The notes under the pieces: generated by a model | The model's input: only the letters and a program-made list of their open reading frames with translations | What the model was told of the DNA's origin: nothing | Databases searched by the model: none | Position numbers and translations under genes: made by a program | Origin: Myxococcota bacterium | GTDB taxonomy: Bacteria > Myxococcota_A > UBA9160 > UBA4427 | Length of the DNA stretch: 64,000 nt | Assembly (NCBI GenBank): GCA_965250285.1 | Contig: OZ252299.1 | Span: 4,128,001 to 4,192,000, forward strand | Direction: 5' to 3' | In this document: piece after piece, positions 1,826 through 17,005 of the stretch | Position numbering within the stretch: position 1 is the first letter of the stretch | Layout of the letters: each line of letters opens with the position of its first letter

Positions 1826-3298
1826 TCAGCGCCGGTCGTAATCCTCGAGCCTGGGTCGGGCCATCTCGGCCTCGAACCGATCGTAGGTGAATGGCCAGGC
1901 CGTGGGGAGCCCGGTTTCGTCCAGGTACCAGCTGTTGCATCCGCTCGCCCAGAGCGTGTGGGCGGCGGCCGCGCGGCGCTCTTCGTCGAAGCACGCCATG
2001 GCCTCGCGCGATACACAGAGCGAATCACATCGCCCGGCCGCGATCTCGTCGACGAGCTGAAGGATGTAGTCCATCTCGAGCTCGGCGACGTCGATCAGCG
2101 AGAAGTTGCCGACCGGGCCGTTTGGCCCGTTGAGCATGAAGAAGTTGGGCATCTCGGGCACCGAGATCGCGAGATACGCCGAAGGGCCTTTCTCCCACAC
2201 GGCGTCGAGCAGCCGGCCGTCACGCCCCGCCACGTGCATCGGCCGCACGAACGAGTCGACGCGAAACCCGGTCGCCATCACCACGACGTCGAGCTCGTGC
2301 AGCGTGCCGTCGGCCGTGCGGATCCCACGCGGTTCGAAGCGTTCGATCGCCTCGGTGACGACGTCGGCGTTGGGACGCGAGATCGCGGGGTAGAACGTCC
2401 CCGACAGGATCAGCCGCTTGCAGCCCGCACGATAGTCAGGGCGCAGCTTCTCGCGCAGCACGGGGTCGGCCACGCCCTGCTCGAGCGCCTGCTGGCAGGC
2501 GGCGTGCATGGCGTCGAGCAGCGGGTGCTCGCCGTCGACGAGGACGTTCGCGAACCCATCGATGAACTGCGTGCGCACCTCCTGTCGGATCTCGAGCATG
2601 CCGGCGTCATCGCGCTCGAACCCTGCTCGCTGCTCGGGCGTGTAGGGCACGTTCTCCATGGGCATGACCCACTGCGCCGTGCGCTGGAAGAGCTCGAGGT
2701 GATCGACCTGTTCGGCCGTGGCAGCGACGATCTGGATGGCACTCGACCCCGTGCCGATCACGCCGAGGCGCTTGCCCGCGAGGTCGAGATCGTCGGGCCA
2801 TCGAGCGCTGTGAAACGCCTGCCCCTCGAACGCATCGAGCCCATCGAAGGTCGGCTCGTTGATTTGATGGAGCACGCCGGTGGCCGCGATGATCACGTGG
2901 GCCGTGTCCTCGACCCCCGTCGCCGTCTCGACGTGCCACTGCCCCGCTTCGAAGTCGCAGCGCGTCACCTGTTCGCCGAATCGAATGCGGTCGCGCACGT
3001 CGAAGCGGTCGGTGGCACCTTCGAGGTACTGCTGAATCTCGTCGCCCGGCGCGAAGCGCTGGCTCCAGTTCGGGTTCAGCGCAAAAGAGTACGAGTAGAG
3101 GTGCGAGGGCACGTCACAGGCAATGCCGGGGTAGCGATTCTCGCGCCACGTGCCGCCGATGCGGTCGGCCTTCTCGTAGATCACCCAGTCGTCGTAGCCG
3201 GCCTTGCGCAGGCGAATGCCCGCGAGAATGCCGGCCATGCCCGCGCCGATGATGATGAATCGGAGATCCCGCTCGGGCCTGCGCTCGTGATCGGCCAT
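1826..3298 (-). CDS. Flavin-containing monooxygenase (Baeyer-Villiger type)
   Basis: GAGMAG, GGTWRENRYPG, FEGQAFHSARWP (FxGxxxHxxxWP fingerprint), GTGSSA, ATGF. Confidence 0.93.
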   Translation of the reverse strand: MADHERRPERDLRFIIIGAGMAGILAGIRLRKAGYDDWVIYEKADRIGGTWRENRYPGIACDVPSHLYSYSFALNPNWSQRFAPGDEIQQYLEGATDRFDVRDRIRFGEQVTRCDFEAGQWHVETATGVEDTAHVIIAATGVLHQINEPTFDGLDAFEGQAFHSARWPDDLDLAGKRLGVIGTGSSAIQIVAATAEQVDHLELFQRTAQWVMPMENVPYTPEQRAGFERDDAGMLEIRQEVRTQFIDGFANVLVDGEHPLLDAMHAACQQALEQGVADPVLREKLRPDYRAGCKRLILSGTFYPAISRPNADVVTEAIERFEPRGIRTADGTLHELDVVVMATGFRVDSFVRPMHVAGRDGRLLDAVWEKGPSAYLAISVPEMPNFFMLNGPNGPVGNFSLIDVAELEMDYILQLVDEIAAGRCDSLCVSREAMACFDEERRAAAAHTLWASGCNSWYLDETGLPTAWPFTYDRFEAEMARPRLEDYDRR

Positions 3299-3428: not shown

Positions 3429-4970
3429 TCAGTCGAGGGGAAGGGGCGCGTCGTCGACCGACGCGAGACCCGCGTGCGTCGCGACGAGGTCGACCCGCCA
3501 CGTGCTGCCGCCGAGATCGGGCTCGAAGGCGCCGCCCTCACCGAGGCGCCAGTAGTGCAGGAGCGCTTCGTCGCCACTCAGGTCGAGCGCGTGACCGCCG
3601 GCGTCGATGGCGGCGATCTCGGCGGCCTCGAGCGGGCGAGCGTAGATCGCCGTGTGGCCGATCCGCCCTGCGTAGCCTTCGCCGATGCGAATCGCGCCGG
3701 TGAGTGCGCTCGGAGCGGCTCCATCGGTCAGCACGGCGACGCTCGACGGCGCGACCGCGGCGCCGGCGATGATCAGTCGGACGGGCGCGCTGGCATCGGG
3801 GTCGATGACCACGGCCACGTGCTGCCAGACGTCGTGCGTGACGGCATCGGCGAAGGTCGCCTCGTAGAGCACGTCTCCAGCCGCACTGCGCAGCGAAACG
3901 AGCAGGGCGGTGCCATCGATCAGGTCGACGTCCAGGGCGCTGTCGTCGACGTCGCTCGAGACCGAGAGGAGACCGCGCAGCTCGTCGGCGCTCGTCCAGG
4001 GCCGCAGCCAGGTCGAAAGCGTGAGACCGCCGTCGATCGCGTCGTCGATCGAACCCACGAGATGAGAGCCGCTGCCGTCGAACTCGATCGAGCGCCAGTC
4101 GCCTTCTACGGTCGTCGTGTCGCGGCGCGCGTCGGCGTTGGCATCACTGCTCGCAGCATCGCCCGTCACCGACGACGCGGCCGGGCTCGCGGTCGTCGGC
4201 GAAGCCATGCCGGCCGAAGGCGCGGCCATCGCAGCGCTCGCCGCCATCGCGTCCTCGATCAGATCGTCGCCCGTCACCGTGATCGTGTTCGACGGTGCCG
4301 ACGTGATGCGATCGCCGTAGGCGTAGAGGGTGAGCTCGTAGTCCTGGTCGGTCTCGAGATCGACCGGATAGCTCAGCCGGTCGTTCGCGATCTCGTTCGC
4401 CGACCCAAGCGGGATGTTCACCGTGCGGTAGTCGCCGCCACCGACCACGTCGATGTCGAGCCGGTAGCCCGCGACGCCTTCAGAGGGCGAGGGCACCCAG
4501 CGAGCGGCATAAGCCACGACCGACGGCACGGCCGGCGCGGGCGGTTCCGGGGCCGGCGGCGGGGGTGCGGGAGGCGCCGGCGGTGCCGGGGCAGGCGGTG
4601 CCGGGGCCGGCGGCGGGGTCGGTGCGTCGCCGCCTCCGTTGGTGACACCACCGCCGCTGCTGCCAGAGCCCGAGTTGCCACCGCCAGTGCTGCCACCCGA
4701 GCCGGAGTTGTCACCGCCGGTGCTACCACCCGAGCCCGAGTTGCCACCGCCGATGCTGACGATGTCTCCGATCTCGAAGGGCGGCGTGTAGCCGGTGTCA
4801 CCGGGCTGCAGCTCCTCGACGAAGCTGCACGCGCCGCTGGTCGCCACGATCAGACTCAGGAGCCCAGCGCGAATCCAGCCCGAAACGGAGGGGCGGCGTC
4901 GGGGCTCGCTCGAGGCGAGGAGATGTGCGTGGCCGGTGACTGTCATCGAAGAACTCATCGCCCCGCCCAC
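3429..4970 (-). CDS. Secreted/lipoprotein with Gly-Ser and Pro-Ala linkers, FN3-like and LamG/concanavalin-like domains (start uncertain)
   Basis: Hydrophobic stretch ending TSGAC (lipobox-like); GGxNSGSGGST x3; Pro-rich linker; WVPSPSEGVAGY...YELTLYAY..SAPSN FN3-like; FDGSGSH, TLSTWLRP, WQHVAVV, IYARPL, YWRLGEG LamG-like. Confidence 0.7.
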   Translation of the reverse strand: MGGAMSSSMTVTGHAHLLASSEPRRRPSVSGWIRAGLLSLIVATSGACSFVEELQPGDTGYTPPFEIGDIVSIGGGNSGSGGSTGGDNSGSGGSTGGGNSGSGSSGGGVTNGGGDAPTPPPAPAPPAPAPPAPPAPPPPAPEPPAPAVPSVVAYAARWVPSPSEGVAGYRLDIDVVGGGDYRTVNIPLGSANEIANDRLSYPVDLETDQDYELTLYAYGDRITSAPSNTITVTGDDLIEDAMAASAAMAAPSAGMASPTTASPAASSVTGDAASSDANADARRDTTTVEGDWRSIEFDGSGSHLVGSIDDAIDGGLTLSTWLRPWTSADELRGLLSVSSDVDDSALDVDLIDGTALLVSLRSAAGDVLYEATFADAVTHDVWQHVAVVIDPDASAPVRLIIAGAAVAPSSVAVLTDGAAPSALTGAIRIGEGYAGRIGHTAIYARPLEAAEIAAIDAGGHALDLSGDEALLHYWRLGEGGAFEPDLGGSTWRVDLVATHAGLASVDDAPLPLD

Positions 4971-6007: not shown

Positions 6008-6120
6008 CCCGAGCCCGCGTCAGTGCGCGCCGTGCTCATGACCCGGGGCCGCGTCAGTGCGCGCCGTGCTCATGCGCCGGGGCCGAGTCAGTGCGCGCCG
6101 TGCTCATGCGCCGGGGCCGC
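6005..6120. repeat. 34-bp tandem repeat (about 3 copies) spanning two convergent stop codons
   Basis: tcagtgcgcgccgtgctcatg recurs at 6020, 6054 and 6088; the third copy is the PCuAC gene 3' end. Confidence 0.95.
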
Positions 6121-6570
6121 TGCAGGCGCGCGGCGCACCTCGGCCACGACGACGAGCTCGTCCTGCCCTTCGACGGCGAACCGGATCTCGACCTTCTGGC
6201 CGAGCTCGAGCTTCTCGGGTCGGATGAACATCACGTGCAGCCCACCGGGTTCGAGGACGACCTCGCCGCCGCTCGGCACCTCGATCGCGTCGATGCGGCG
6301 CATGCGCGCGACGCCTTCCTCGACCCAGCTTCGGTGGATCTCGGTGCGCGCCGCCACGTCACTCGCGACGCCGACGACGCGGATCGGCTCGGCGCCGGCG
6401 TTCTCGAACACGAGGTAGCCGGCTGCGTTGGCCCCCGGCGGCGGCTGACGAACCCAGGCGCCCGACACTTCGAGGTCGTCGGCGGAGGCGCCCGTCGTGG
6501 CGCTCATGGCGATCGGCACGAGCGCGAGTAGAGATAGAAGAAGCAGGCGCCCCCCGCCCGGTCGAGCCAT
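6088..6570 (-). CDS. Periplasmic copper chaperone PCu(A)C
   Basis: Signal peptide, AWVR..PPG..AAGY, EIH...RM, LEPGGLHVM, His-rich tail HEHGAH; TGATG-coupled to the SCO gene. Confidence 0.92.
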   Translation of the reverse strand: MARPGGGRLLLLSLLALVPIAMSATTGASADDLEVSGAWVRQPPPGANAAGYLVFENAGAEPIRVVGVASDVAARTEIHRSWVEEGVARMRRIDAIEVPSGGEVVLEPGGLHVMFIRPEKLELGQKVEIRFAVEGQDELVVVAEVRRAPAAAPAHEHGAH

Positions 6571-7250
6571 CACGTATCGCTCCGATCGACGGCCTGAATA
6601 CGGCGCACCAGATCGACGAAGGCCGCAGCGTCGGTCGGTTCGTGCAGGATCGCGTGGAGCCGCGCGTCGGGACCCACGAGAAAGAGAGACGAGGCGTGGT
6701 CGACCAGATAGCCCTCGGCGCCTGGTGTTCGGGGCTGTGCCTTGTTGTAGGCGCCGATGGCGCGCGTCAATCGCTCGATCTCACCGGGCTCTCCCGTCGC
6801 GCCGCGCAGCGCCGGGTGGAAGAACGAGACGTACTCGGCCATGCGGTCGATGTCGTCTCGGGCCGGGTCGACCGAGACGAAGACCACGCTCGGATCACCG
6901 GTCTCGACCAGCAGATCCTGCACGGGCGACAGGCTCTGCAGCGTCGTCGGGCAGATGTCGGGGCAGTACGTGTACCCGAAGAAGAGGAGGCTCCAGCCCC
7001 CCTCGAGCGAGCCGCGGGTGAACGGGGCGCCTTCGTGGTCGACCAGCTCGAACGAGTCGATCGCGAGCGTCACCGGCAACACGTGAACGTCTTGGCCGAA
7101 ATCGGGGACCGGCGGCGGCGCGCTGCGCCAGAGCACGGCACCGAAGCCGACGAGCACGGCGACGACGATCGCGCCCAGCACGATCGCGCTGCGATCGCCC
7201 TCGTCCTGCGGATCCTCGCCGGGCGGTGATGCTTGAAGCGGTTGGGACAT
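6570..7250 (-). CDS. SCO family copper protein
   Basis: N-terminal TM helix, FFGYTYCPDICP (CxxxC), SVDPARD, YLVDH. Confidence 0.95.
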   Translation of the reverse strand: MSQPLQASPPGEDPQDEGDRSAIVLGAIVVAVLVGFGAVLWRSAPPPVPDFGQDVHVLPVTLAIDSFELVDHEGAPFTRGSLEGGWSLLFFGYTYCPDICPTTLQSLSPVQDLLVETGDPSVVFVSVDPARDDIDRMAEYVSFFHPALRGATGEPGEIERLTRAIGAYNKAQPRTPGAEGYLVDHASSLFLVGPDARLHAILHEPTDAAAFVDLVRRIQAVDRSDT

Positions 7251-7475
7251 GAGCCACGTGGTTTGCGCGGGCGGGGGCGCAACGCGCGCGTTCGTTCGAA
7301 GGTAGTGCAGGCACCCGGGAAGCGGCGGGTTCGAACCCGCCACCGAGCGTTGCGACCCGGCAAGCGTTGCGACCCGACCCCGGGGTGCCCACGACGGCCG
7401 CGGCGGCTCGACGCGCTCACGCGGCCGACCCGGGCCGACGAGCGCCGGCCGCGGCCGGTGCCGCGCGGCGCCGGG

Positions 7476-8410: not shown

Positions 8411-9901
8411 ATGGCACGCTACGAGCACATCCTCGCCACGATCGGTCGAACGCCCGTCGTCCGCGTTCAGCGTCTCGAGCCCGAGGGCAGCGAGCTCTAC
8501 GTGAAGGTCGAGTCGTTCAATCCCGGTGGCTCGGTGAAGGACCGACTCGCCCTCGGCGTGATCGAGGATGCCGAGCGACGCGGCGCGCTGAAGCCCGGCC
8601 AGACCGTCGTCGAGGCGACGAGCGGCAACACGGGCATCGGCCTCGCGGTGGTGTGCGCCCGCAAGGGCTACCCGCTCGTGGTCACGATGGCCGAGAACTT
8701 CAGCGTCGAGCGACGCAAGCTCATGCGCTTTCTCGGCGCGAAGGTCGTGCTCACGCCGGCCGCGCAGAAGGGCAGCGGCATGCTGCAAAAGGCCGAGGAG
8801 CTCGCCGCCGAGCACGGCTGGTTCCTCGCGCGCCAGTTCGAGAACGAGGCCAACCCCGACATGCACTCGCGCACGACGGCGCGTGAGATCCTCGAAGACT
8901 TCGAAGGCGACGGGCTCGACTACTGGGTCACCGGGTTCGGCACCGGAGGGACGCTGACCGGTGTATCTCGGGTGCTGCGAAAGGAGAGCCCGGCGACGAA
9001 GGTCGTGGTCTGCGAGCCCGACAACGTGCCGCTGCTCGGCAGCGGCGTCGCCCAGGCCCGCACCGACGACGGTCGTCCCGCCGAGAGCCATCCCGCGTTT
9101 CGGCCGCACCTGATGCAGGGCTGGTCCCCCGACTTCATTCCGAAGATCGCGGGCGAGGCCGTCGACGAGTCTCTGATCGACGAGATCCTGCCGGTGGCCG
9201 GCGCCGACGCCCTCGAGGCCGCGCATGCACTCGCGACGCAGGAGGGCATCTTCGTCGGCATCTCGGGCGGCGCGACGTTCGCCGGCGCCGTCGAGGTGGC
9301 GAAGCGCGCGCCGAAGGGCAGTCGCGTGCTCTGCATGCTGCCCGACACGGGCGAGCGCTACCTGACCACCCCGCTCTTCGAGGGGATCGCCGAAGAGATG
9401 ACGGCCGAAGAGATCGCGCTGTCGAAGTCGACCCCGAACGTGCGCTTCGACGTCTCGCCGCCGCCCCCGCCGCCGAGCGACGAAGAAGAAGCCCCCGTCG
9501 CGATCACTCCCGAGGCCCAGGCCTTCCTCGACCGCACGCTCGCCTCGAAGGACGACCCGGTCGTCATGTTCGCGCTCGAGTGGTGCGAGTTCTGCTGGTC
9601 GGTCCGCAAGCTCTTCGCGCGGCTCGACATCCCCTACGAGACGGTCGACCTCGACTCGGCCGCCCATCAGAAGGACGACTGGGGCGCGCAGGTGCGAGCT
9701 GCCCTCACGGCGCAGACGAGCATGAAGACGATCCCGCAGGTGTTCGTCGGCGGCGAGTTCATCGGCGGCGCCACCGAGACGTTCGATGCCTGGAACGAGG
9801 GCCGGCTGAGCGACCTGCTCTCGGGCCTCGGCGTGGGCTTCGACCAGGGCGCCCGGATCGACGCCTATGACTTTCTGCCGAAGTGGCTGCAGCCGCGCTA
9901 G
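8411..9901 (+). CDS. cysK: Cysteine synthase A fused to a C-terminal glutaredoxin domain
   Basis: NPGGSVKDR (PLP Lys), EATSGNTG, GTGGT, GISGGA, PDTGERYL; then WCEFC and TIPQVFVGGEFIGGA. Confidence 0.9.
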   Translation: MARYEHILATIGRTPVVRVQRLEPEGSELYVKVESFNPGGSVKDRLALGVIEDAERRGALKPGQTVVEATSGNTGIGLAVVCARKGYPLVVTMAENFSVERRKLMRFLGAKVVLTPAAQKGSGMLQKAEELAAEHGWFLARQFENEANPDMHSRTTAREILEDFEGDGLDYWVTGFGTGGTLTGVSRVLRKESPATKVVVCEPDNVPLLGSGVAQARTDDGRPAESHPAFRPHLMQGWSPDFIPKIAGEAVDESLIDEILPVAGADALEAAHALATQEGIFVGISGGATFAGAVEVAKRAPKGSRVLCMLPDTGERYLTTPLFEGIAEEMTAEEIALSKSTPNVRFDVSPPPPPPSDEEEAPVAITPEAQAFLDRTLASKDDPVVMFALEWCEFCWSVRKLFARLDIPYETVDLDSAAHQKDDWGAQVRAALTAQTSMKTIPQVFVGGEFIGGATETFDAWNEGRLSDLLSGLGVGFDQGARIDAYDFLPKWLQPR

Positions 9902-9908
9902 CCGGGCT

Positions 9909-10928
9909 TCAGCGGGGCTTCGCCCAGGTCGGTCGCTCCTCGATCACGTAGTCGACCACGAGGTACTCGCCGTCGCGCACGAAGACGAGCTTGACCGGCG
10001 CGTCGACGCCGTACATGTAGAGCCACTTCTGAAAGTCACCCACCGATTCGATGCGGTTGTGCGAGAACTGGACGAGCACGTCGCCGGGCTGGATGCCCAT
10101 GCGCTCAGCAGGCGACTTCGGCCAGACGTGCTCGATGCCGATGCCGCCTCGGTGACCTCGTGAGGCGGGAAACATCGCGCGCTCATCGTCGTTCAGGGAG
10201 CGCACGCTGAAACCCGTCCAGGGCGACTCGAGGCTGCGCTTCTGCTTGATGCTGTCGTAGATGTTGAAGGCGAGAAAGATGGGCAGGATGTGGAGCTCGT
10301 CGGGGTCGTCGACGTGTCCTTCCTCGGCCTCTGGGGCGTAGGCCGTGTAGAGGCCGATCACCGCGCCTTCCTTCGTGAACACCGGCCCTCCGGTCGCGCC
10401 CACCGGCAGCGCGATCTCGGCGCGAAACATCGTCGATGTCAGACTCTCCTGGTAGCACTCCCGCGTATTCAGGCCGGCTACCCGACCGCGCGCCAGCGCC
10501 AGATCCTGGCCATCGAGGGTCGTCGGCACGTAGATCTCACTCCCGACGTCGAGGGCCCGCTCGCGCTTCACGCTCGAAGGCTCGAACGTCTCATCCGAGA
10601 CGATCTCGAGCACGGCGAGGTCGATCGTGGGTTCGACGCCCACGATGCGCGCGGGGAACCGCCGCCCATCTGCTCGCAGCGTCACGGTCAGGTCGGTCAG
10701 GAGCTCGCTCGTATCGGGATCAACGAGCGTGTGATAGGTCGTCAACACGAACCCCTCACGCTCGGTGACGAAGCCCAGGGCGCGGTGCTCGCCCGACGCG
10801 TCGGCGGCCGCATCGACGGTGACGACGGTGGGGACAGGCATCGGTTCAGCTGCTGCGCGCGACGCATCCCCGAGCGCAAGCGCGACGAAACCAATGATGA
10901 TCCAAGCGACTCGCAGCCTCGGGATCAC
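9909..10928 (-). CDS. HtrA/DegP-like trypsin fold plus PDZ domain protein with a non-canonical active site
   Basis: Signal peptide; GFVLTTYH, IDLAVL, GATGGPVF in place of GNSGGPL; PDZ SPAERMGIQPGDVL; GTG start overlaps the cytochrome c stop (GTGA). Confidence 0.85.
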   Translation of the reverse strand: MIPRLRVAWIIIGFVALALGDASRAAAEPMPVPTVVTVDAAADASGEHRALGFVTEREGFVLTTYHTLVDPDTSELLTDLTVTLRADGRRFPARIVGVEPTIDLAVLEIVSDETFEPSSVKRERALDVGSEIYVPTTLDGQDLALARGRVAGLNTRECYQESLTSTMFRAEIALPVGATGGPVFTKEGAVIGLYTAYAPEAEEGHVDDPDELHILPIFLAFNIYDSIKQKRSLESPWTGFSVRSLNDDERAMFPASRGHRGGIGIEHVWPKSPAERMGIQPGDVLVQFSHNRIESVGDFQKWLYMYGVDAPVKLVFVRDGEYLVVDYVIEERPTWAKPR

Positions 10929-11464
10929 GGCGTGAAATCCTGGTTGAAGGGGTTCACGCCGGTGCCGGGCGTGATCTTGATGAACTCGTGCAGGGTCGCG
11001 GCGTGGCACGTGTTGCATGCGTCGATCAGCTGGTTCATCGCCCGCTCGAGCTCCAACTGGTTGCCGCCCGGCGGTGTCTGTTTCGCCAGCTTGGCGAACG
11101 CGAGCGTGGGTGGCAGGCCGTGCCGGTCGATGAGCAGCGCGATCGGCTGACCGTCGTATTCGGGCACGTCGCTCTGAATCTCTTTCAGCTTCTCGATCGA
11201 TTCATAGGCGTAGAACGCCGCGAGCGCGCCGTTCCCGGCCGCGACCGAGAGCGCGAGCTTGTGGGTGAGACGCTGCAGCTCACCCATGTAGGGGGCCAGC
11301 TCGACGCGCAGCTCGCCATCGTCGAGGGGCTTCAGCTCACCGGCAGGCGGATTGGCGACGCCGGCGGTGGCGAGACACACGATGAGCGCCGTGGCCGCCG
11401 CGAGGCAACCGACCCGTCGCCGGTGAGGGGGTTGCCGAGTGGATGTCTTGAGAGACTCGATCAT
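10925..11464 (-). CDS. Periplasmic monoheme cytochrome c (C-terminal CxxCH, cytochrome c'-like)
   Basis: Signal peptide, helical body, CNTCH near the C-terminus; AGGAGG SD. Confidence 0.8.
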   Translation of the reverse strand: MIESLKTSTRQPPHRRRVGCLAAATALIVCLATAGVANPPAGELKPLDDGELRVELAPYMGELQRLTHKLALSVAAGNGALAAFYAYESIEKLKEIQSDVPEYDGQPIALLIDRHGLPPTLAFAKLAKQTPPGGNQLELERAMNQLIDACNTCHAATLHEFIKITPGTGVNPFNQDFTP

Positions 11465-11576
11465 GACCTCCTGAGCTTGCCCGATTCCGAGCCGGGAAAC
11501 GAACGTGGAGCGGCCCACTCCGTCGTCAGATCGGAGTGGGCCGCTCGTGGTCCCGCGAGCGAACGAGCCGCTCGCC

Positions 11577-14500
11577 CTACGCGCGTCGGCGCAGGCGCCT
11601 CCGTGCCGCGATCAGCACAGGCACGATGAAGGCCAGCTCCGCACCGAGACCGCAGAGTCGCAGACCCTTGACCTGGAGATCCATCGTCACCATGCGGTGA
11701 TCGGAGGCGTCCAGTAGATCGGCCGTCAGGTCGGTGGTCAGCGGCCAGTACACGAAGCCCTGCTGTGGGGTCAACGCAGCCTGCGAAGGCAGGACGTAGT
11801 CGGCGCGCAGATTGAAGCTCGCCGTCTTCGTCTCACGCTCGCTGCCCGAAGGCACCTGCTCGAGCGCGCCCTCACTCGTCGGCGTGATGGTCGAGTCGAC
11901 GAAGGGGCTGTCCAGCAGGAGCAGCGCGGGGTTGAAGGTCGCGTCTCCATCCACCGGGTCCGCGTTCTGGTCGCCCATGATCACGAACCGCGCACCCTTC
12001 ATCAGACCGCCGCGGCGCTTGCGCAGCTTGGGTGCCCGACCCTTCTTGTCCCACTCGCGGTCGTCGTAGATGTACGCGCTCTTGTCGGGATCGACGTAGT
12101 CGGCCCAGAAGCGAATCTCATCGTGGTTCCGCAGACCATTCACGTCCGCGACGTTCGGGTCGGGGTAGACCGTGGCCGTCCCGTCGTCGAAGACAGGCGG
12201 GGTCGGGTGGCTGGCGAGCACGTGCAGCACGCCGTGACCCGGGATCCACACCGGCACGTCCATGTGGGTCTTCGACGAGAGGCGGTAGATCTCGAGCTCT
12301 TCGTCCGTGAAGTAGCTCGTGAGGTCGCCGTCGCCGTCCGTGTCGTTCGGGTCGGGCGGCAGGAACGCGCCCGGCATGTCGACCCAGCGGAACTTCTGGA
12401 ACGTCCGCACCCGGTGCTCGAGAATCTCGTGCTTCGAGAGCACGATCATCGCGAACTGACCCGCGTGGTTGCCGAAGCCGAAGGCGTCGCCCGGCCCCCC
12501 GACGCTGCCGTTGTTGTCGAGGTCGAGCCCGGCAGGCACACCGGTGTTCGACGGCGACACGAAGGCGTAGTCGTAGTAGACCGGGTCGGTGTCGTCGGCT
12601 TGGGCGACCTCGAGGTAGTTCGCCTTGAAGTCCTCGATCGTCGCCAGCGTGGCAGCGAGGCCGAACTCGCCATTCTCATCGTAGAGCTGATCGTACTCGT
12701 TGATCAGCACGATGTCGGCGTCGACCCGCTGGATCACCTCGGCCACCTGCTGGATCTGGCCATCGGCCCCCGACGCCAACGCGGTGGCGAGGTCACCCGA
12801 GTTCGGGCGATTCATCGACGTGTTGAAGCTGGCTACGCGCAGATTGCCGAGCTTCTCTGGATCGACGTATTCGGTTACCTCGACCGCATCGACCTGGATC
12901 GCGTCGATGACGCTGCCCTCACTGTCGGTCACCGTGAGCGCGACGGTGTAGACGCCCGCCGCCGCATACTCGTTGGTCGGCCCTTCGGCGTCGGACGTGT
13001 TGCCATCGCCGAAGTCCCAGGCCAGATCGTAGGGCGGCACACCCCCGGTCACCGTCGGAATGAAGGTCACCGAGCCACCGCTCCGCGTGAATGCGAAGCC
13101 GGCCTCGAGCGGTCCGCCGCGCTCGGCGATGCAGACCTGGTCGACGCCAATGCGCTTGGTGGTGCCACCGCTGTCCCCCGCCGACTCGTAGAGGAACGCC
13201 ACTCGAACGTCTTCGCCGGTCAGACCGATGATGTCGGATGACACGTCGATCCAGGCGTCTGAGGTCGATCCGTCGAGCCCGGTCGGCGTGATGTCGACCC
13301 AGCTCGTCGTGGTCGGGTCGCCGGTATAGCTGTTGGTGACCAAGACCGAGAGCGGCTTGTCGATGGTATCGCCGAAGTTCTCGTAGTACTGGAAGTCGAC
13401 GCCCGTGTTCGGGTTGCCGACGAAGATCGGCGGGCTGATCAGCCAATCCTTCGCGGGCGTGCCGCCTTCGATGCCACCGGGCGGCGAGCCGAAGTTGTTG
13501 TTGATCGCGCCCTGCTGGCCGGCTCGGTTGTCGTAGATCCAGCCGAACTCCGAGCTCAGATTGACGATCTCCCACGGCGTCGACGGATCGTCGGCGATGT
13601 CGCTGTTCTCACCGCCTTCGAAGTCGAAGCCACACTGGCCCTTGATGATCACGTCGTCGACGTTGAACCGGACGCTCTGGCCGCCACCCCCGCCCAGGCT
13701 CTGATAGCGATAGGCGATGTACGCCGTGCCATCGATGCCCGAGATGTCGAAGGGGCCCTGCGGCGTCAGCGTGCCGTCTTGCGACGTGTCGATGTTGATG
13801 ACGTTCCACGTCGCCTCGTTCGGATCGGCGTTGCTCAGCGGATCGTAATCAGTCGACCAGAGCACCTCGGGTGCGGGACCGCTGAACGCGATCTGCGCGT
13901 CGTAGGTGAGACTCTCTTCGCTGAAGAAGAGGAAGTTGATCGGATTGGTCGTGATCAGCCAGTCTTCGGTGGGCGTCTCGCCACCGAAGCCGTTGCCCTG
14001 AATCGCGCCCGTGCTCCCGAAGTCCCAGAGGACCCAGGCGAAGTTGCGATCGGGGCCCGCCACGTCGACGGGCGTGAACTGGCCGAAGCTGTCGGGCACC
14101 TCGAAGTTCTCTTCGAAGATCACCGGCAGCAGCGACACGAGGGTCGTGCCCTCGGCCGTCGCGCTGAGCGCGCTTCGGCCGTGGATGTTGACCGCCCAGA
14201 TCCGGTAGCTGTACGTCAAACCCGACTGCACCTCGGTGTCGACGTAGCTCGTGAACGTGCCGGGATACTCCCGCTCGACCACTTCCCAGGCGGCGTCGCC
14301 CGGCGACTGGCGCTCGATGCGGAAGAACTTGGCGTCGCTCTGCCCGTCCCAGGTGAGATCGAGGCTGATCTCGGTCGCGTTGGCGGTCGCCAGGCCGGTC
14401 GGCGTCGCCGGCGCCGTGCCGGCATCGGGCGAGCCCACCCATGCGATCAGCTCGGCGTCGAGGCGAAGATCCGAGCTGCCGTCGTTCTCCTGGTGCACCG

Positions 14501-16547
14501 AGATCGCGAGCACGTTGCCTGTGGCCTGCAGCGGCACGTCGGCGCCGGTAATCGGGATCTGCTTCCAGTCGGTCTCGGCCGACTCGTTCTGGCTGGCGAA
14601 CGTGTCGTTGTCCACCACCAGGTCGAGATTCAGGTTGTAGCGTGCGACCTCGACCCCGTTGACGTACACGACCGCGCCGTCGTCGACCTTCAGGTAGAGG
14701 TCGAAGAGCGCGATGTTGGTCGGATCGGCGAGGTCGAACTCACGCCGGAAGTAGTACGCGGCCGCGCGAGGCGACGGAGGCTGGACGAGATCGGTGGCCA
14801 GGCGACCGGCCGACTCTCCGTAGCCGAGCATCGTCGGCACCGGCCCCGTGGGCGTGCCGTCGGTGGCGACGTTCCACGACGCGTCGGGTACGAAACCGAC
14901 TTCGTTCCAGGATGCGCCCGGGTCGACCCCGTCGACGCGGTAGTCCCAGAGATCTCCATTCGCGATGAGAGGCGTGCGCAGCAGATCGCTGCCGCGGCCG
15001 GCGAGGTTGATCAGCACCAGCTGGCCGTTCTCGACCAGCTCAGCGCTGTCGGAGAGGCCGTTGCTCGTATGCACCTGGATCGACGAGGCATACCAGCCCT
15101 CGCCCAGGATGTCGGCCATGCTGATGACGCCCGACGACTCTTCGTTCGTCGTCAGGAAGGCCGAGCCGCCGTCGAAGAACACCTCGCCATCGTGCTCGGC
15201 GATCTCTTCGAGCTGGCCCGTCGTGATGTCGTACTCCCAGATCTTCGAGAGCCGCGCGTCGCCACCGAGATCTTCCTGGATGTAGAGCTTGGGCAGGCCG
15301 CCCTCGATGCCGAAGCCCATGTTGTCGAGGCTTCCGAGGCGGTTCTCGGGGCCATCGAGGAGCAGGGTCATCGTGCCGCCCAGGGCGGGGTTCGACAGAT
15401 CATCGAACTCGAGCCGCCAGAGGCGGGTCGGGGCGTTCAAGCCACCCGACGACGTCCCCTTGGTGACGAAGTAGAAGGTGTTCTCGAAGCCGGGGCGCGT
15501 ATCCCAAGCGCCGTCTTCGGGCCCGCCCATCTTCAGGCTCTCGAAGGTCTGAGCCGGGTCGACCGGAGTAATGGTGTCGGTGCCGCGGTTCGTGGTGTCG
15601 TTGCCGTCGACCGGGCGGTTGCCGTCGGTCCCGATCAGCTTCAGCGTGAAGGGTTCGACCGTGCCGACGGCCGAAGCGAGGTCGAGGTCGAGCTCGAAGG
15701 GCTTGCCGACGACCGCGATCGCGTAGAGATTGCCGCCGACGAGACCGGCCTTCTCGACGTCGTTGCCCGTGGTCTGCTTGGTGCCGACGTAGACGTAGAC
15801 CTCACCGTTGGTGGCATCATCGAGGAGCACGGCCACCGTCGTATCCTGCTCGAAGGGGCTGAGGACGAGGTTCTCGATGGCCATGAAGCCCAGGTGCTCG
15901 AGGTGGTACGACCGGCCGGCGTCGGGGCCCGTCACGACGTGGCCCATCGCGCGGCCCGTCGAGAAGCTCTCTTCGCCATTGAAGTAGAGGATGTTCTGGG
16001 TGCCCAGGCCCGTCGCCGAGTTGTACAGCGCGGTCGGCGCGGGGCGATCCGAAGAGCAGAAGCGATCGAAGGTGAGAGAGCCCGGGACGAAGGTCTGGGT
16101 CGTCTCGTCCCAGTCGAACGTCTCCTTGATGAGGTCATCGCCCTCAACGACCTCGTGCGTGACCTTGTCGACCTTCCACTTCGACACGAAGGCGCCCGCG
16201 TTGCCGTGGTCTCGCGGGATGCCCTGGGTGCTGTTCAGCTCGTGATTCACGATGAGATAGAAGAAATCGGGCTCCGGCGGCGAGAGCTCGGCGCCATCGA
16301 TCACGCCGATGCCGTCGGGAATGCCCGCGAGGCGCGTCGTGCCGCCCCCCGTCTTCGGCACCGTGCCGTCGTCGACCGTCAGGATCGATTCGATCAGCAC
16401 CCCAGGCACCGAAGGGAGTACGTAGGGGGGCACGGTGGTCGACGGGCTGGTGGTCTGGGCAAGAGCCGAGGCCGACAGCAACAGCGCAAGGACGGCGCCG
16501 AGAAGCACCGCCGTCGGGCGGGTGAGGGAACGGACAGCGTGCGGCAT
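11577..16547 (-). CDS. Large secreted multidomain phosphoesterase: PhoX-like propeller, beta-sandwich, FN3, adhesin-like domains, PKD, EEP domain, C-terminal anchor
   Basis: Sec signal ending ALA-Q; PhoX-like motifs PDG, NHE, RFCS, GEE, EDG, DN, QED, ESSG, QVH; FN3 PATPTGL..YSYRIWAVN; two DWLI(T/S) adhesin-like modules; PKD WDFGDG; EEP motifs SFN, INEYD, HPTPPVFD, GDQNAD, RADYVLPS, SDH; tail LCGLGAELAFIVPVLIAARRRLRRRA. Confidence 0.82.
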   Translation of the reverse strand: MPHAVRSLTRPTAVLLGAVLALLLSASALAQTTSPSTTVPPYVLPSVPGVLIESILTVDDGTVPKTGGGTTRLAGIPDGIGVIDGAELSPPEPDFFYLIVNHELNSTQGIPRDHGNAGAFVSKWKVDKVTHEVVEGDDLIKETFDWDETTQTFVPGSLTFDRFCSSDRPAPTALYNSATGLGTQNILYFNGEESFSTGRAMGHVVTGPDAGRSYHLEHLGFMAIENLVLSPFEQDTTVAVLLDDATNGEVYVYVGTKQTTGNDVEKAGLVGGNLYAIAVVGKPFELDLDLASAVGTVEPFTLKLIGTDGNRPVDGNDTTNRGTDTITPVDPAQTFESLKMGGPEDGAWDTRPGFENTFYFVTKGTSSGGLNAPTRLWRLEFDDLSNPALGGTMTLLLDGPENRLGSLDNMGFGIEGGLPKLYIQEDLGGDARLSKIWEYDITTGQLEEIAEHDGEVFFDGGSAFLTTNEESSGVISMADILGEGWYASSIQVHTSNGLSDSAELVENGQLVLINLAGRGSDLLRTPLIANGDLWDYRVDGVDPGASWNEVGFVPDASWNVATDGTPTGPVPTMLGYGESAGRLATDLVQPPSPRAAAYYFRREFDLADPTNIALFDLYLKVDDGAVVYVNGVEVARYNLNLDLVVDNDTFASQNESAETDWKQIPITGADVPLQATGNVLAISVHQENDGSSDLRLDAELIAWVGSPDAGTAPATPTGLATANATEISLDLTWDGQSDAKFFRIERQSPGDAAWEVVEREYPGTFTSYVDTEVQSGLTYSYRIWAVNIHGRSALSATAEGTTLVSLLPVIFEENFEVPDSFGQFTPVDVAGPDRNFAWVLWDFGSTGAIQGNGFGGETPTEDWLITTNPINFLFFSEESLTYDAQIAFSGPAPEVLWSTDYDPLSNADPNEATWNVINIDTSQDGTLTPQGPFDISGIDGTAYIAYRYQSLGGGGGQSVRFNVDDVIIKGQCGFDFEGGENSDIADDPSTPWEIVNLSSEFGWIYDNRAGQQGAINNNFGSPPGGIEGGTPAKDWLISPPIFVGNPNTGVDFQYYENFGDTIDKPLSVLVTNSYTGDPTTTSWVDITPTGLDGSTSDAWIDVSSDIIGLTGEDVRVAFLYESAGDSGGTTKRIGVDQVCIAERGGPLEAGFAFTRSGGSVTFIPTVTGGVPPYDLAWDFGDGNTSDAEGPTNEYAAAGVYTVALTVTDSEGSVIDAIQVDAVEVTEYVDPEKLGNLRVASFNTSMNRPNSGDLATALASGADGQIQQVAEVIQRVDADIVLINEYDQLYDENGEFGLAATLATIEDFKANYLEVAQADDTDPVYYDYAFVSPSNTGVPAGLDLDNNGSVGGPGDAFGFGNHAGQFAMIVLSKHEILEHRVRTFQKFRWVDMPGAFLPPDPNDTDGDGDLTSYFTDEELEIYRLSSKTHMDVPVWIPGHGVLHVLASHPTPPVFDDGTATVYPDPNVADVNGLRNHDEIRFWADYVDPDKSAYIYDDREWDKKGRAPKLRKRRGGLMKGARFVIMGDQNADPVDGDATFNPALLLLDSPFVDSTITPTSEGALEQVPSGSERETKTASFNLRADYVLPSQAALTPQQGFVYWPLTTDLTADLLDASDHRMVTMDLQVKGLRLCGLGAELAFIVPVLIAARRRLRRRA

Positions 16548-17005
16548 CGCCGGTTTCTCCTGGATGGCCGCGCCTCGGAGGGCGGCTTGGCTCGCGGCGT
16601 AGATGGACGTCATCGAGGCGAGACCTCGCCCACGATGGCCGGCACCCTATCCGTTCGTACGAATTCACGCGGTTGAAAAACGGTGGCCTTCCGGTCGCGC
16701 TCGCCGTGACAGTCGACTCGTTTCGCCGAGTGGTGTGGGCGAAATCGTGGAAGTGCCGTGACGGTCGGCATGGAGAAACACCGTTCGTTCGAGACCCGCG
16801 CGATCCGGCACTGAGCGCAACGCGCCGACTTCTCGCCTGTGTACGGCGACTTGCAACGCCGCGAAGCGATCGGGGTGACGCGCACACGCGCGACGCATGG
16901 AGCGAGAAGTGTGTCGTTCCGGTGTGGGGCGGGATGGCGATGCCATGGATGCAAAGCGTCGGCTGGCCGCCGCGCGCCTATGCTCGCGTCACGGCAGTGC
17001 GGCGA

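Follow-up and report, generated by a model that had tools for sequence, protein, structure and literature searches.

Phosphatases of the PhoX, PhoD and purple acid phosphatase (PAP) types all use Fe3+, and it has been proposed that export by the twin-arginine translocation (Tat) system allows PhoX and PhoD to acquire their iron in the cytoplasm (PMC4223295). Psip1 of Prochlorococcus MED4, which has the PhoX fold and predicted Sec export, is Fe- and Ca-dependent and PhoB-regulated (PMC11098088). In the magnetosome island, the HtrA pseudoprotease MamO, which binds metal via two surface histidines (PMC4794232), is accompanied by MamP, described in a review as an iron oxidase (PMC5476634). Here we analysed a 64,000-nt stretch of contig OZ252299.1 from a Myxococcota bacterium (hereafter the window, to whose positions all coordinates refer unless another locus or genome is named), in which three minus-strand genes in one orientation (9909-16547) encode a giant phosphoesterase, a cytochrome c and an HtrA-like protein, in this order. 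The cytochrome and HtrA-like genes make up a conserved pair that is linked to PhoX-like, PhoD and PAP genes. There is good support for a tie of this pair to phosphate scavenging, and the mechanism behind it may be iron loading.

The closest described systems each share part of this arrangement. The N-terminal propeller of the giant enzyme resembles Pseudomonas fluorescens PhoX (PDB 3zwu/4amf) in fold, acidic motifs and putative ligand set, but it is 14% identical to it, scores below the Pfam cut-off, follows a Sec-type signal, has Gly in place of Arg385 and belongs to a 1656-aa EEP fusion. With Psip1 it shares the PhoX fold, predicted Sec export and, by eye, a similar order of motifs; Psip1, however, is 694 aa long, has Lys at the Arg385 position and lacks an equivalent of D292 (R385 and D292 being PhoX positions named in the same paper), and we found no mention of Psip1 helper genes in the accessible portion of that paper (PMC11098088). 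Like MamO with MamP/MamE, the window sets an HtrA-fold pseudoprotease beside a cytochrome c, but its 339-aa pseudoprotease is not fused to a TauE domain and scores 42.6 with the NCBIfam MamO model, whose cut-off is 800, its cytochrome is of class II and not a magnetochrome, its context is a phosphatase and its metal binding is putative; MamO has a di-His metal site (H148/H263), to which the conserved His205 and His213 of the window protein might or might not correspond. In contrast to the imelysin/di-haem (Efe-like) and cytochrome c/FTR1 modules, the window pair comes without permease, imelysin or peroxidase. No account of a combined cytochrome, pseudo-HtrA and phosphatase was found in the literature searched, most subscription papers lying outside it.

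Neighbourhoods and genomic distribution of the pair

Species genomes yielded 70 cytochrome loci (loci and genomes are numbered below with L and G), and in 48 of these the next gene downstream is that of the pseudoprotease. The gene order of the window is found again in L032, L036 and L089, titled Myxococcota or Deltaproteobacteria, and in the gammaproteobacterial L065 and L068, and L039 (Verrucomicrobiota) has a similar order with one small gene inserted. Most verrucomicrobial loci contain another propeller, 27% identical, fused to EEP and endonuclease I, and the gene of this fusion lies upstream, downstream or divergent of the pair. The preliminary description of this DNA had called for a neighbourhood analysis of the small genes, and they do accompany PhoX-like genes elsewhere, in the exact order in records titled Myxococcota, Deltaproteobacteria and Gammaproteobacteria and in near variants in Verrucomicrobia. 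When metagenome loci were added, the cytochrome was present in 76 of 85 near-clade pseudoprotease loci, most misses being short contigs; L036 and L089 stand outside the 85 by score, and the pseudoprotease genes of both are frameshifted. Collapsing loci at 90% identity and keeping those of at least 10 kb left 40 non-redundant near-clade pseudoprotease loci, of which 39 carry the cytochrome, 26 a PhoX-like (22), PhoD (6) or PAP (2) gene, and 30 a phosphoesterase of any kind. As a control, we inspected cytochrome-only loci, and none of the 18 that reach 10 kb (out of 25) carries PhoX-like, PhoD or PAP genes. The link of the pair is kept through rearrangement (upstream, downstream, divergent, convergent), with two propeller subtypes and with three enzyme folds; propeller identity across phyla is 62-76%. 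A client range limited to PhoX was rejected because PhoD and PAP giants are neighbours too.

Several individual loci deserve mention. Giants of 2600-3300 aa combine PhoD, phytase-like and choice-of-anchor I domains in one chain, in some cases with PhoX-like domains as well (L062 2-9832, L061 2-8827, L028 3-7970, L164 9275-18802). In L021 a short inverted EEP coding remnant (3027-3242) lies just upstream of the cytochrome gene, which suggests that a giant gene was recently lost, and in L089, whose pseudoprotease gene is the frameshifted one noted above, about 1.2 kb interrupts the cytochrome gene (9322-10981). Distant cytochromes without pseudoprotease (L074, L075, L077, L078, L084) cluster with MauG/CCP-like di-haem and thioredoxin-like genes.

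Whole-genome profiles were obtained for 251 genomes (at least 85% complete) of one Verrucomicrobiota order, that of G075, a sample in which kin are not independent, genomes are incomplete, some may be counted twice and profiles were built from pair-linked loci. The pseudoprotease occurs in 17 genomes, the PhoX-like domain in 40, both in 14 and the EEP family of the giant enzyme in 45. PhoX-like domains are thus found in 14 of 17 pseudoprotease genomes versus 26 of 234 others (Fisher p 4e-10, overstated because kin are not independent), and in the three pair genomes without them the neighbourhood contains a PhoD giant in L062 and a PAP bearing the Tyr-ligand GDxxY motif in L044 and L070. PhoX-like and EEP domains share one open reading frame in 15 genomes. 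One or both genes of the pair are present in 14 of these; G300 has neither, G309 the pseudoprotease only, G169 both at separate sites and G087 a cytochrome at the end of a contig. That EEP alone determines the presence of the pair was rejected: the 45 EEP genomes have it mostly as a stand-alone gene without the pair. In the class of the source genome (225 genomes), the cytochrome was found in nine genomes, the propeller in seven and both small genes in five; all four giant fusions adjoin the pair, the other three propellers are not beside it, and no pseudoprotease was seen around four more divergent cytochromes within the stretches examined.

Proteins encoded by the operon

All features in this section lie on the minus strand unless stated otherwise. 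The giant gene (11577..16547) starts with ATG behind a GGAG site and encodes a Sec-type exported protein of 1656 aa, defined by domain searches, a model and full-length orthologues (L032, L036, L039, L065, L068, L089, L095, L152, L168). It had been described beforehand as two phosphoesterase folds joined through FN3, adhesin-like and PKD spacers behind a Sec-type signal without twin-Arg, and this composition was borne out, the FN3 match being weak and the signal being judged by eye. The signal peptide (residues 1-30; 16458..16547) is followed by the PhoX-like beta-propeller (31-520; 14988..16457; profile match, model and ligand alignment), an FN3-like spacer (715-799; 14151..14405; Pfam, E 0.03), a choice-of-anchor J, adhesin-like domain (986-1139; 13131..13592; the better of two stretches, NCBIfam), a PKD domain (1157-1219; 12891..13079; Pfam) and the EEP domain (1240-1617; 11697..12830), which matches PF03372 with 61.4 bits against a cut-off of 24.5 (E 1.4e-16) and in which the catalytic motifs (FNTS, INEYD, SHPT, GDQNAD, ADYV, SDH) are present and conserved. 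A C-terminal hydrophobic helix with a basic tail (11580..11654) is, judged from its sequence, a probable surface anchor; the C-termini of orthologues vary, with PEP-CTERM-like tails, other tails or none.

Neither Pfam PhoX (PF05787) nor NCBIfam returned anything for residues 31-520 of the window protein; PF05787 does match relatives in L026, L037 and L040. A profile of 15 relatives matched PhoX alone in the PDB (E 9e-6), with acidic motifs aligned. The AlphaFold model of the propeller (pLDDT 95) is six-bladed, and its best structural match is PhoX 3zwu (Z 25.8, root-mean-square deviation (rmsd) 3.4, 391 residues aligned), followed by other propellers with Z of at most 24.9 and 242-312 residues aligned. 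Ten residues (E103, C164, E193, E225, D244, E344, D408, E425, D426, E470) are invariant in 57 of 57 propellers, five of these positions align to PhoX motifs in the profile match, and the ten are putative Fe/Ca ligands; Cys164 is the sole Cys of the propeller. The suggestion that the PhoX metal ligands be sought by structure prediction accordingly led to a divided answer, as the PhoX fold and all putative ligands are there and the phosphate-binding Arg is not: the position of Arg385 is Gly342 in the window protein (Gly in 7 and Arg in 48 of 57 relatives), and Lys339 might stand in for it. At 50% identity the PhoX-like family clusters into 1558 representatives; of 47 representatives in which the domain is N-terminal, 45 have no Tat motif. 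Single-sequence searches miss the PhoX homology; PhoX-like genes were recovered in 19 of 47 cases, and by profile in 36 of 47. Acting at the cell surface, the giant enzyme likely sets phosphate free from organic esters; diesters would be the substrates of the EEP domain and monoesters those of the propeller.

The cytochrome gene (10925..11464) is separated from the giant gene by 112 nt and encodes a class II monohaem cytochrome c of 179 aa with CNTCH at residues 150-154, as indicated by alignment and fold model. In an alignment of 50 of the 197 sequences found, CNxCH, Met60 (50/50, at the start of helix 1) and His68 are invariant, and Met60 would occupy the sixth haem site. The model is a four-helix bundle with a C-terminal CxxCH, a trait shared with its fold matches Kusta0087 (Z 12.8, rmsd 2.4, 105 aligned) and cytochromes c' and cb562, although such scores are common for helical bundles; unlike these, the window cytochrome has no Pfam match and no PDB sequence match, and Foldseek gave no match at E 0.001 or better. 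An Atlas search returned unnamed clusters and one cluster with 14% PF01322.

The HtrA-like gene (9909..10928), which overlaps the cytochrome gene by GTGA, encodes a 339-aa HtrA-fold pseudoprotease with a GATGGP motif (Pfam and alignment). Like DegP, DegS and DegQ it consists of a trypsin-like domain and one PDZ (Pfam), but the catalytic triad is lost in all 77 homologues aligned (out of 201 found), with Ser retained in none, His in 2 and Asp in 16, and residual protease activity was therefore rejected. The view of this protein as a degenerate HtrA thus stands for the whole family, the His at its catalytic position being incidental (2/77). The sole Cys, Cys158, is invariant within Cys-Tyr-Gln, and the near clade keeps His205 (70/77), Glu211 (71/77) and His213 (76/77); the best-conserved parts are loop L3, the linker and the PDZ (0.75-0.85). 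The protein is about 25% identical to the ordinary HtrA genes of the source genome and has no membrane anchor behind its signal peptide. Among 60 relatives an orthologue was found in G008 alone, where the pair is accompanied by a short inverted EEP remnant and the contig holds no intact phosphatase. A complex prediction for the two small proteins scored 0.42 versus 0.00 for the best control, with contact agreement between runs of at least 86% and partner pLDDT of at least 86; it lends weak support to an interaction. In calibration 116 of the 157 solved pairs and 2 of the 215 mismatched ones passed the threshold, and the range up to 0.60 held only 18 solved pairs plus both passing mismatched ones.

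The three co-oriented genes and the coupling of the last two, reported beforehand, agree with the coordinates, and hydrophobic Sec-type N-terminal peptides are visible by eye on all three proteins, as had been stated. Each gene is single copy in the source genome, and their G+C content (0.66; third position 0.85-0.89) is that of the adjoining genes. The source genome encodes TatC and three more PhoX genes (two twin-Arg, one Sec-type), none adjoining the pair. Convergent with the pseudoprotease gene, a plus-strand gene (8411-9901) encodes a 496-aa protein with a C-terminal glutaredoxin-like domain containing WCEFC; it has no Pfam or NCBIfam matches, and from its motif we presume it to be cysteine synthase-like. 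Coupled genes for SCO1/SenC and a PCuAC copper chaperone (6088-7343; Pfam) lie 2.5 kb from the operon and were not seen to recur beside the pair in other loci. A further gene (3429-4970) encodes a 513-aa exported protein with a laminin G domain (Pfam) and Gly/Ser and Pro-rich repeats.

Regulation and sister clades

Of 34 loci in which the cytochrome gene has its own promoter, 28 have the motif YGTCAC some 50-200 nt ahead of its start, as against 1 of 12 loci with the cytochrome behind a co-oriented giant gene and 32 of 238 control starts of open reading frames (shuffles: mean 3.8, maximum 10; L027, a duplicate, and the truncated L066 were excluded). A matrix built from these sites detected an 11-bp dyad upstream of pstS in four of the five pstS loci scanned, the remaining one being the second pstS of the source genome; the dyad also precedes the best phoB-like gene in five of five genomes, against one of four other response regulators. 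It fits a Pho box; a CRP-type reading was rejected because of the half-site spacing of 11 and because pstS shares the dyad. In the source genome a triple 11-bp Pho-box-like repeat lies between divergent phoB-like and pstS genes (G000:C1:1118279-1118306). The best such dyad upstream of the operon (16747..16763, minus strand) is weak, at 8.0 bits, with 2147 genome sites scoring as high; L032, L036 and L089 have a CGCAAT-N5-CGTCAY-like dyad in common. A promoter and terminator scan of the region returned no sigma-70 site and weak hairpins near 11521-11505, which were not used. From these motifs the pair is predicted to be induced by phosphate starvation.

Sister pseudoproteases, 29-38% identical, were found in a metagenome scan. 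In sister group 1 the pseudoprotease is fused behind a cytochrome c domain (five of five scanned) whose best plasmid matches are annotated as cytochrome c/FTR1 family iron permeases (35-44% identity), and no phosphatase was seen in these loci. The fusion of an FTR1-type N-terminal cytochrome c with a dead HtrA-PDZ, without permease (L171, L173, L176, L185, L187, L190; Pfam in all but L176), is an undescribed architecture as far as we searched. In sister group 2, six closely related loci, the gene directly after that of the pseudoprotease is a PhoX-like one, stand-alone and of Sec type; on contigs that extend far enough, the pseudoprotease gene is divergent from genes for imelysin and a di-haem oxidoreductase. 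Such imelysin and di-haem genes stand beside stand-alone PhoX-like genes in two lineages, with or without the pseudoprotease (L182 7276-12891, L189, L191, L211 6164-11200), and this layout is an iron-uptake arrangement (PMC3143127). Common to all three pseudoprotease clades are the Cys-Tyr-Gln, the SPW linker and PDZ residues only.

Possible functions of the pair

We tentatively propose that the pair assists, outside the cytoplasm, in loading Fe(III) into large phosphatases that leave by the Sec route, in the present case into the PhoX-like domain, a reading that we consider quite possible without yet calling it probable. Its putative clients belong to three unrelated Fe(III) phosphatase folds, in proteins that are too large, and of the wrong export type (Sec), for the usual Tat route. 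The pair would bind Fe(II) or the folding client and oxidise the iron at delivery: the pseudoprotease may hold the folding enzyme or the iron ion, with Cys158, His205, Glu211 and His213 as candidate residues, and the cytochrome, with predicted Met/His ligation, would accept the electron given up on oxidation of Fe(II) to Fe(III). In a bolder version, which we regard as possible but doubtful, the pair would be the first of a set of undescribed extracytoplasmic Fe(III)-insertion machines, made of a cytochrome electron sink and a pseudo-HtrA metallochaperone, that let PhoX, PhoD and PAP types leave Tat and join giant Sec-exported enzymes, as a counterpart, beyond magnetosomes, of MamO/MamP chemistry.

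A number of observations weigh against this proposal. Non-iron enzymes are no less frequent near the pair than iron-dependent ones (EEP in 23, endonuclease I in 17 and phytase-like in 7 of the 40 non-redundant loci), and 10 of the 40 have no phosphoesterase at all, so the link may concern phosphate scavenging or giant exported proteins in general. The pair can be separated, as in G169, which has both genes apart, and in G309, which has the pseudoprotease only; 26 of the 40 PhoX-like genomes are without pseudoprotease (G087, with its cytochrome, among them), and the cytochrome is absent from three of the seven propeller genomes of the source class. Near 15 PhoX-like loci from pair-less genomes the pair was not found, and imelysin and di-haem genes occur in one of these (L211). 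The profiles used (A3, A5) were themselves built from pair-associated loci, the His/Glu cluster (His205, Glu211, His213) is absent from the sister clades, and the promoter of the window operon has no significant Pho box (8.0 bits versus 17.5 at the genome's pstS site). Psip1, moreover, predicted to be Sec-exported, was active after addition of Fe3+ and Ca2+ when made in E. coli (PMC11098088). A strict need of the pair for Sec-exported propellers was rejected on the grounds that 45 of 47 representatives lack a Tat motif and none of the 15 pair-less loci has it; because so many related enzymes come without the pair, it would improve maturation and not enable it. The dedicated PhoX maturation module of the preliminary description is upheld in its linkage to PhoX-like genes and not in its exclusiveness, given the PhoD and PAP neighbours and the lack of a general need.

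Other functions could be imagined. Since DegP has chaperone activity, the pseudoprotease might be a chaperone or holdase for giant Sec exports under phosphate starvation, with the cytochrome unrelated or in a minor redox role and iron taken up passively; the clients are multidomain proteins of 1600-3300 aa, autotransporter-repeat (PATR) proteins are frequent neighbours, a SurA-like peptidyl-prolyl isomerase follows the pseudoprotease in L070 and L096, the conservation of PDZ, linker and loop L3 would fit, and the lone pseudoprotease of G309 as well. We nevertheless consider this unlikely, as it leaves unexplained the coupling to the cytochrome, the FTR1-type cytochrome fusion and the linkage to small stand-alone PhoX-like genes in the sister clades. 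Improbable, too, is a role in protecting or repairing the lone active-site Cys of PhoX-like and PhoD enzymes in the oxidising periplasm through Cys158 and a haem electron relay: Cys164 and Cys158 are the sole Cys of their domains, Cys-Tyr-Gln is invariant in all three clades and PhoD activity needs a Cys (C180A; PMC4223295), but no Cys was seen among the ligand motifs identified in PAP neighbours, the pair is missing for most PhoX-like genes that share this Cys, and a Met/His cytochrome would be an unusual thiol reductant.

The Pho-box-like promoter that the pair has even without an adjacent phosphatase, together with the iron-uptake links of the sister clades, could also point to a Pho-regulated redox module that acts in parallel to the phosphatases and serves to mobilise the phosphate of Fe(III)-phosphate or to deal with the iron set free along with it; we give this little credence, as the loci have no recurring outer-membrane electron conduit or multihaem protein and the presence of the pair follows particular enzyme fusions. 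Still less probable is a DegS-like sensor or scaffold, in which the PDZ reads C-terminal peptides and the haem senses redox state or gas, tuning export or expression of the enzyme: loop L3 and PDZ are highly conserved and cytochrome c' is among the fold matches, yet the pseudoprotease is unanchored, no receptor or regulator recurs in the loci, and the invariant Met60 would fill the sixth haem site. The patchy spread (17 of 251 genomes, and 5 of 225 of the source class with both genes) and the 62-76% propeller identity across phyla point to horizontal transfer, and the linkage might merely reflect hitch-hiking on a mobile phosphate-scavenging island; we hold this to be very improbable, since the link survives rearrangement, propeller subtypes of 27% identity and three enzyme folds, and recurs in a separate sister clade.

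PhoX and PhoD are major microbial phosphatases, and their need for iron ties the phosphorus and iron cycles to each other. As large a Sec-type PhoX-like family as the one described here must obtain its iron elsewhere than in the cytoplasm, and the locus offers two small soluble proteins as candidates for an extracytoplasmic iron supply. After the magnetosomes, it would be the second setting with an apparent pairing of a dead HtrA and a c-type cytochrome for metal chemistry.

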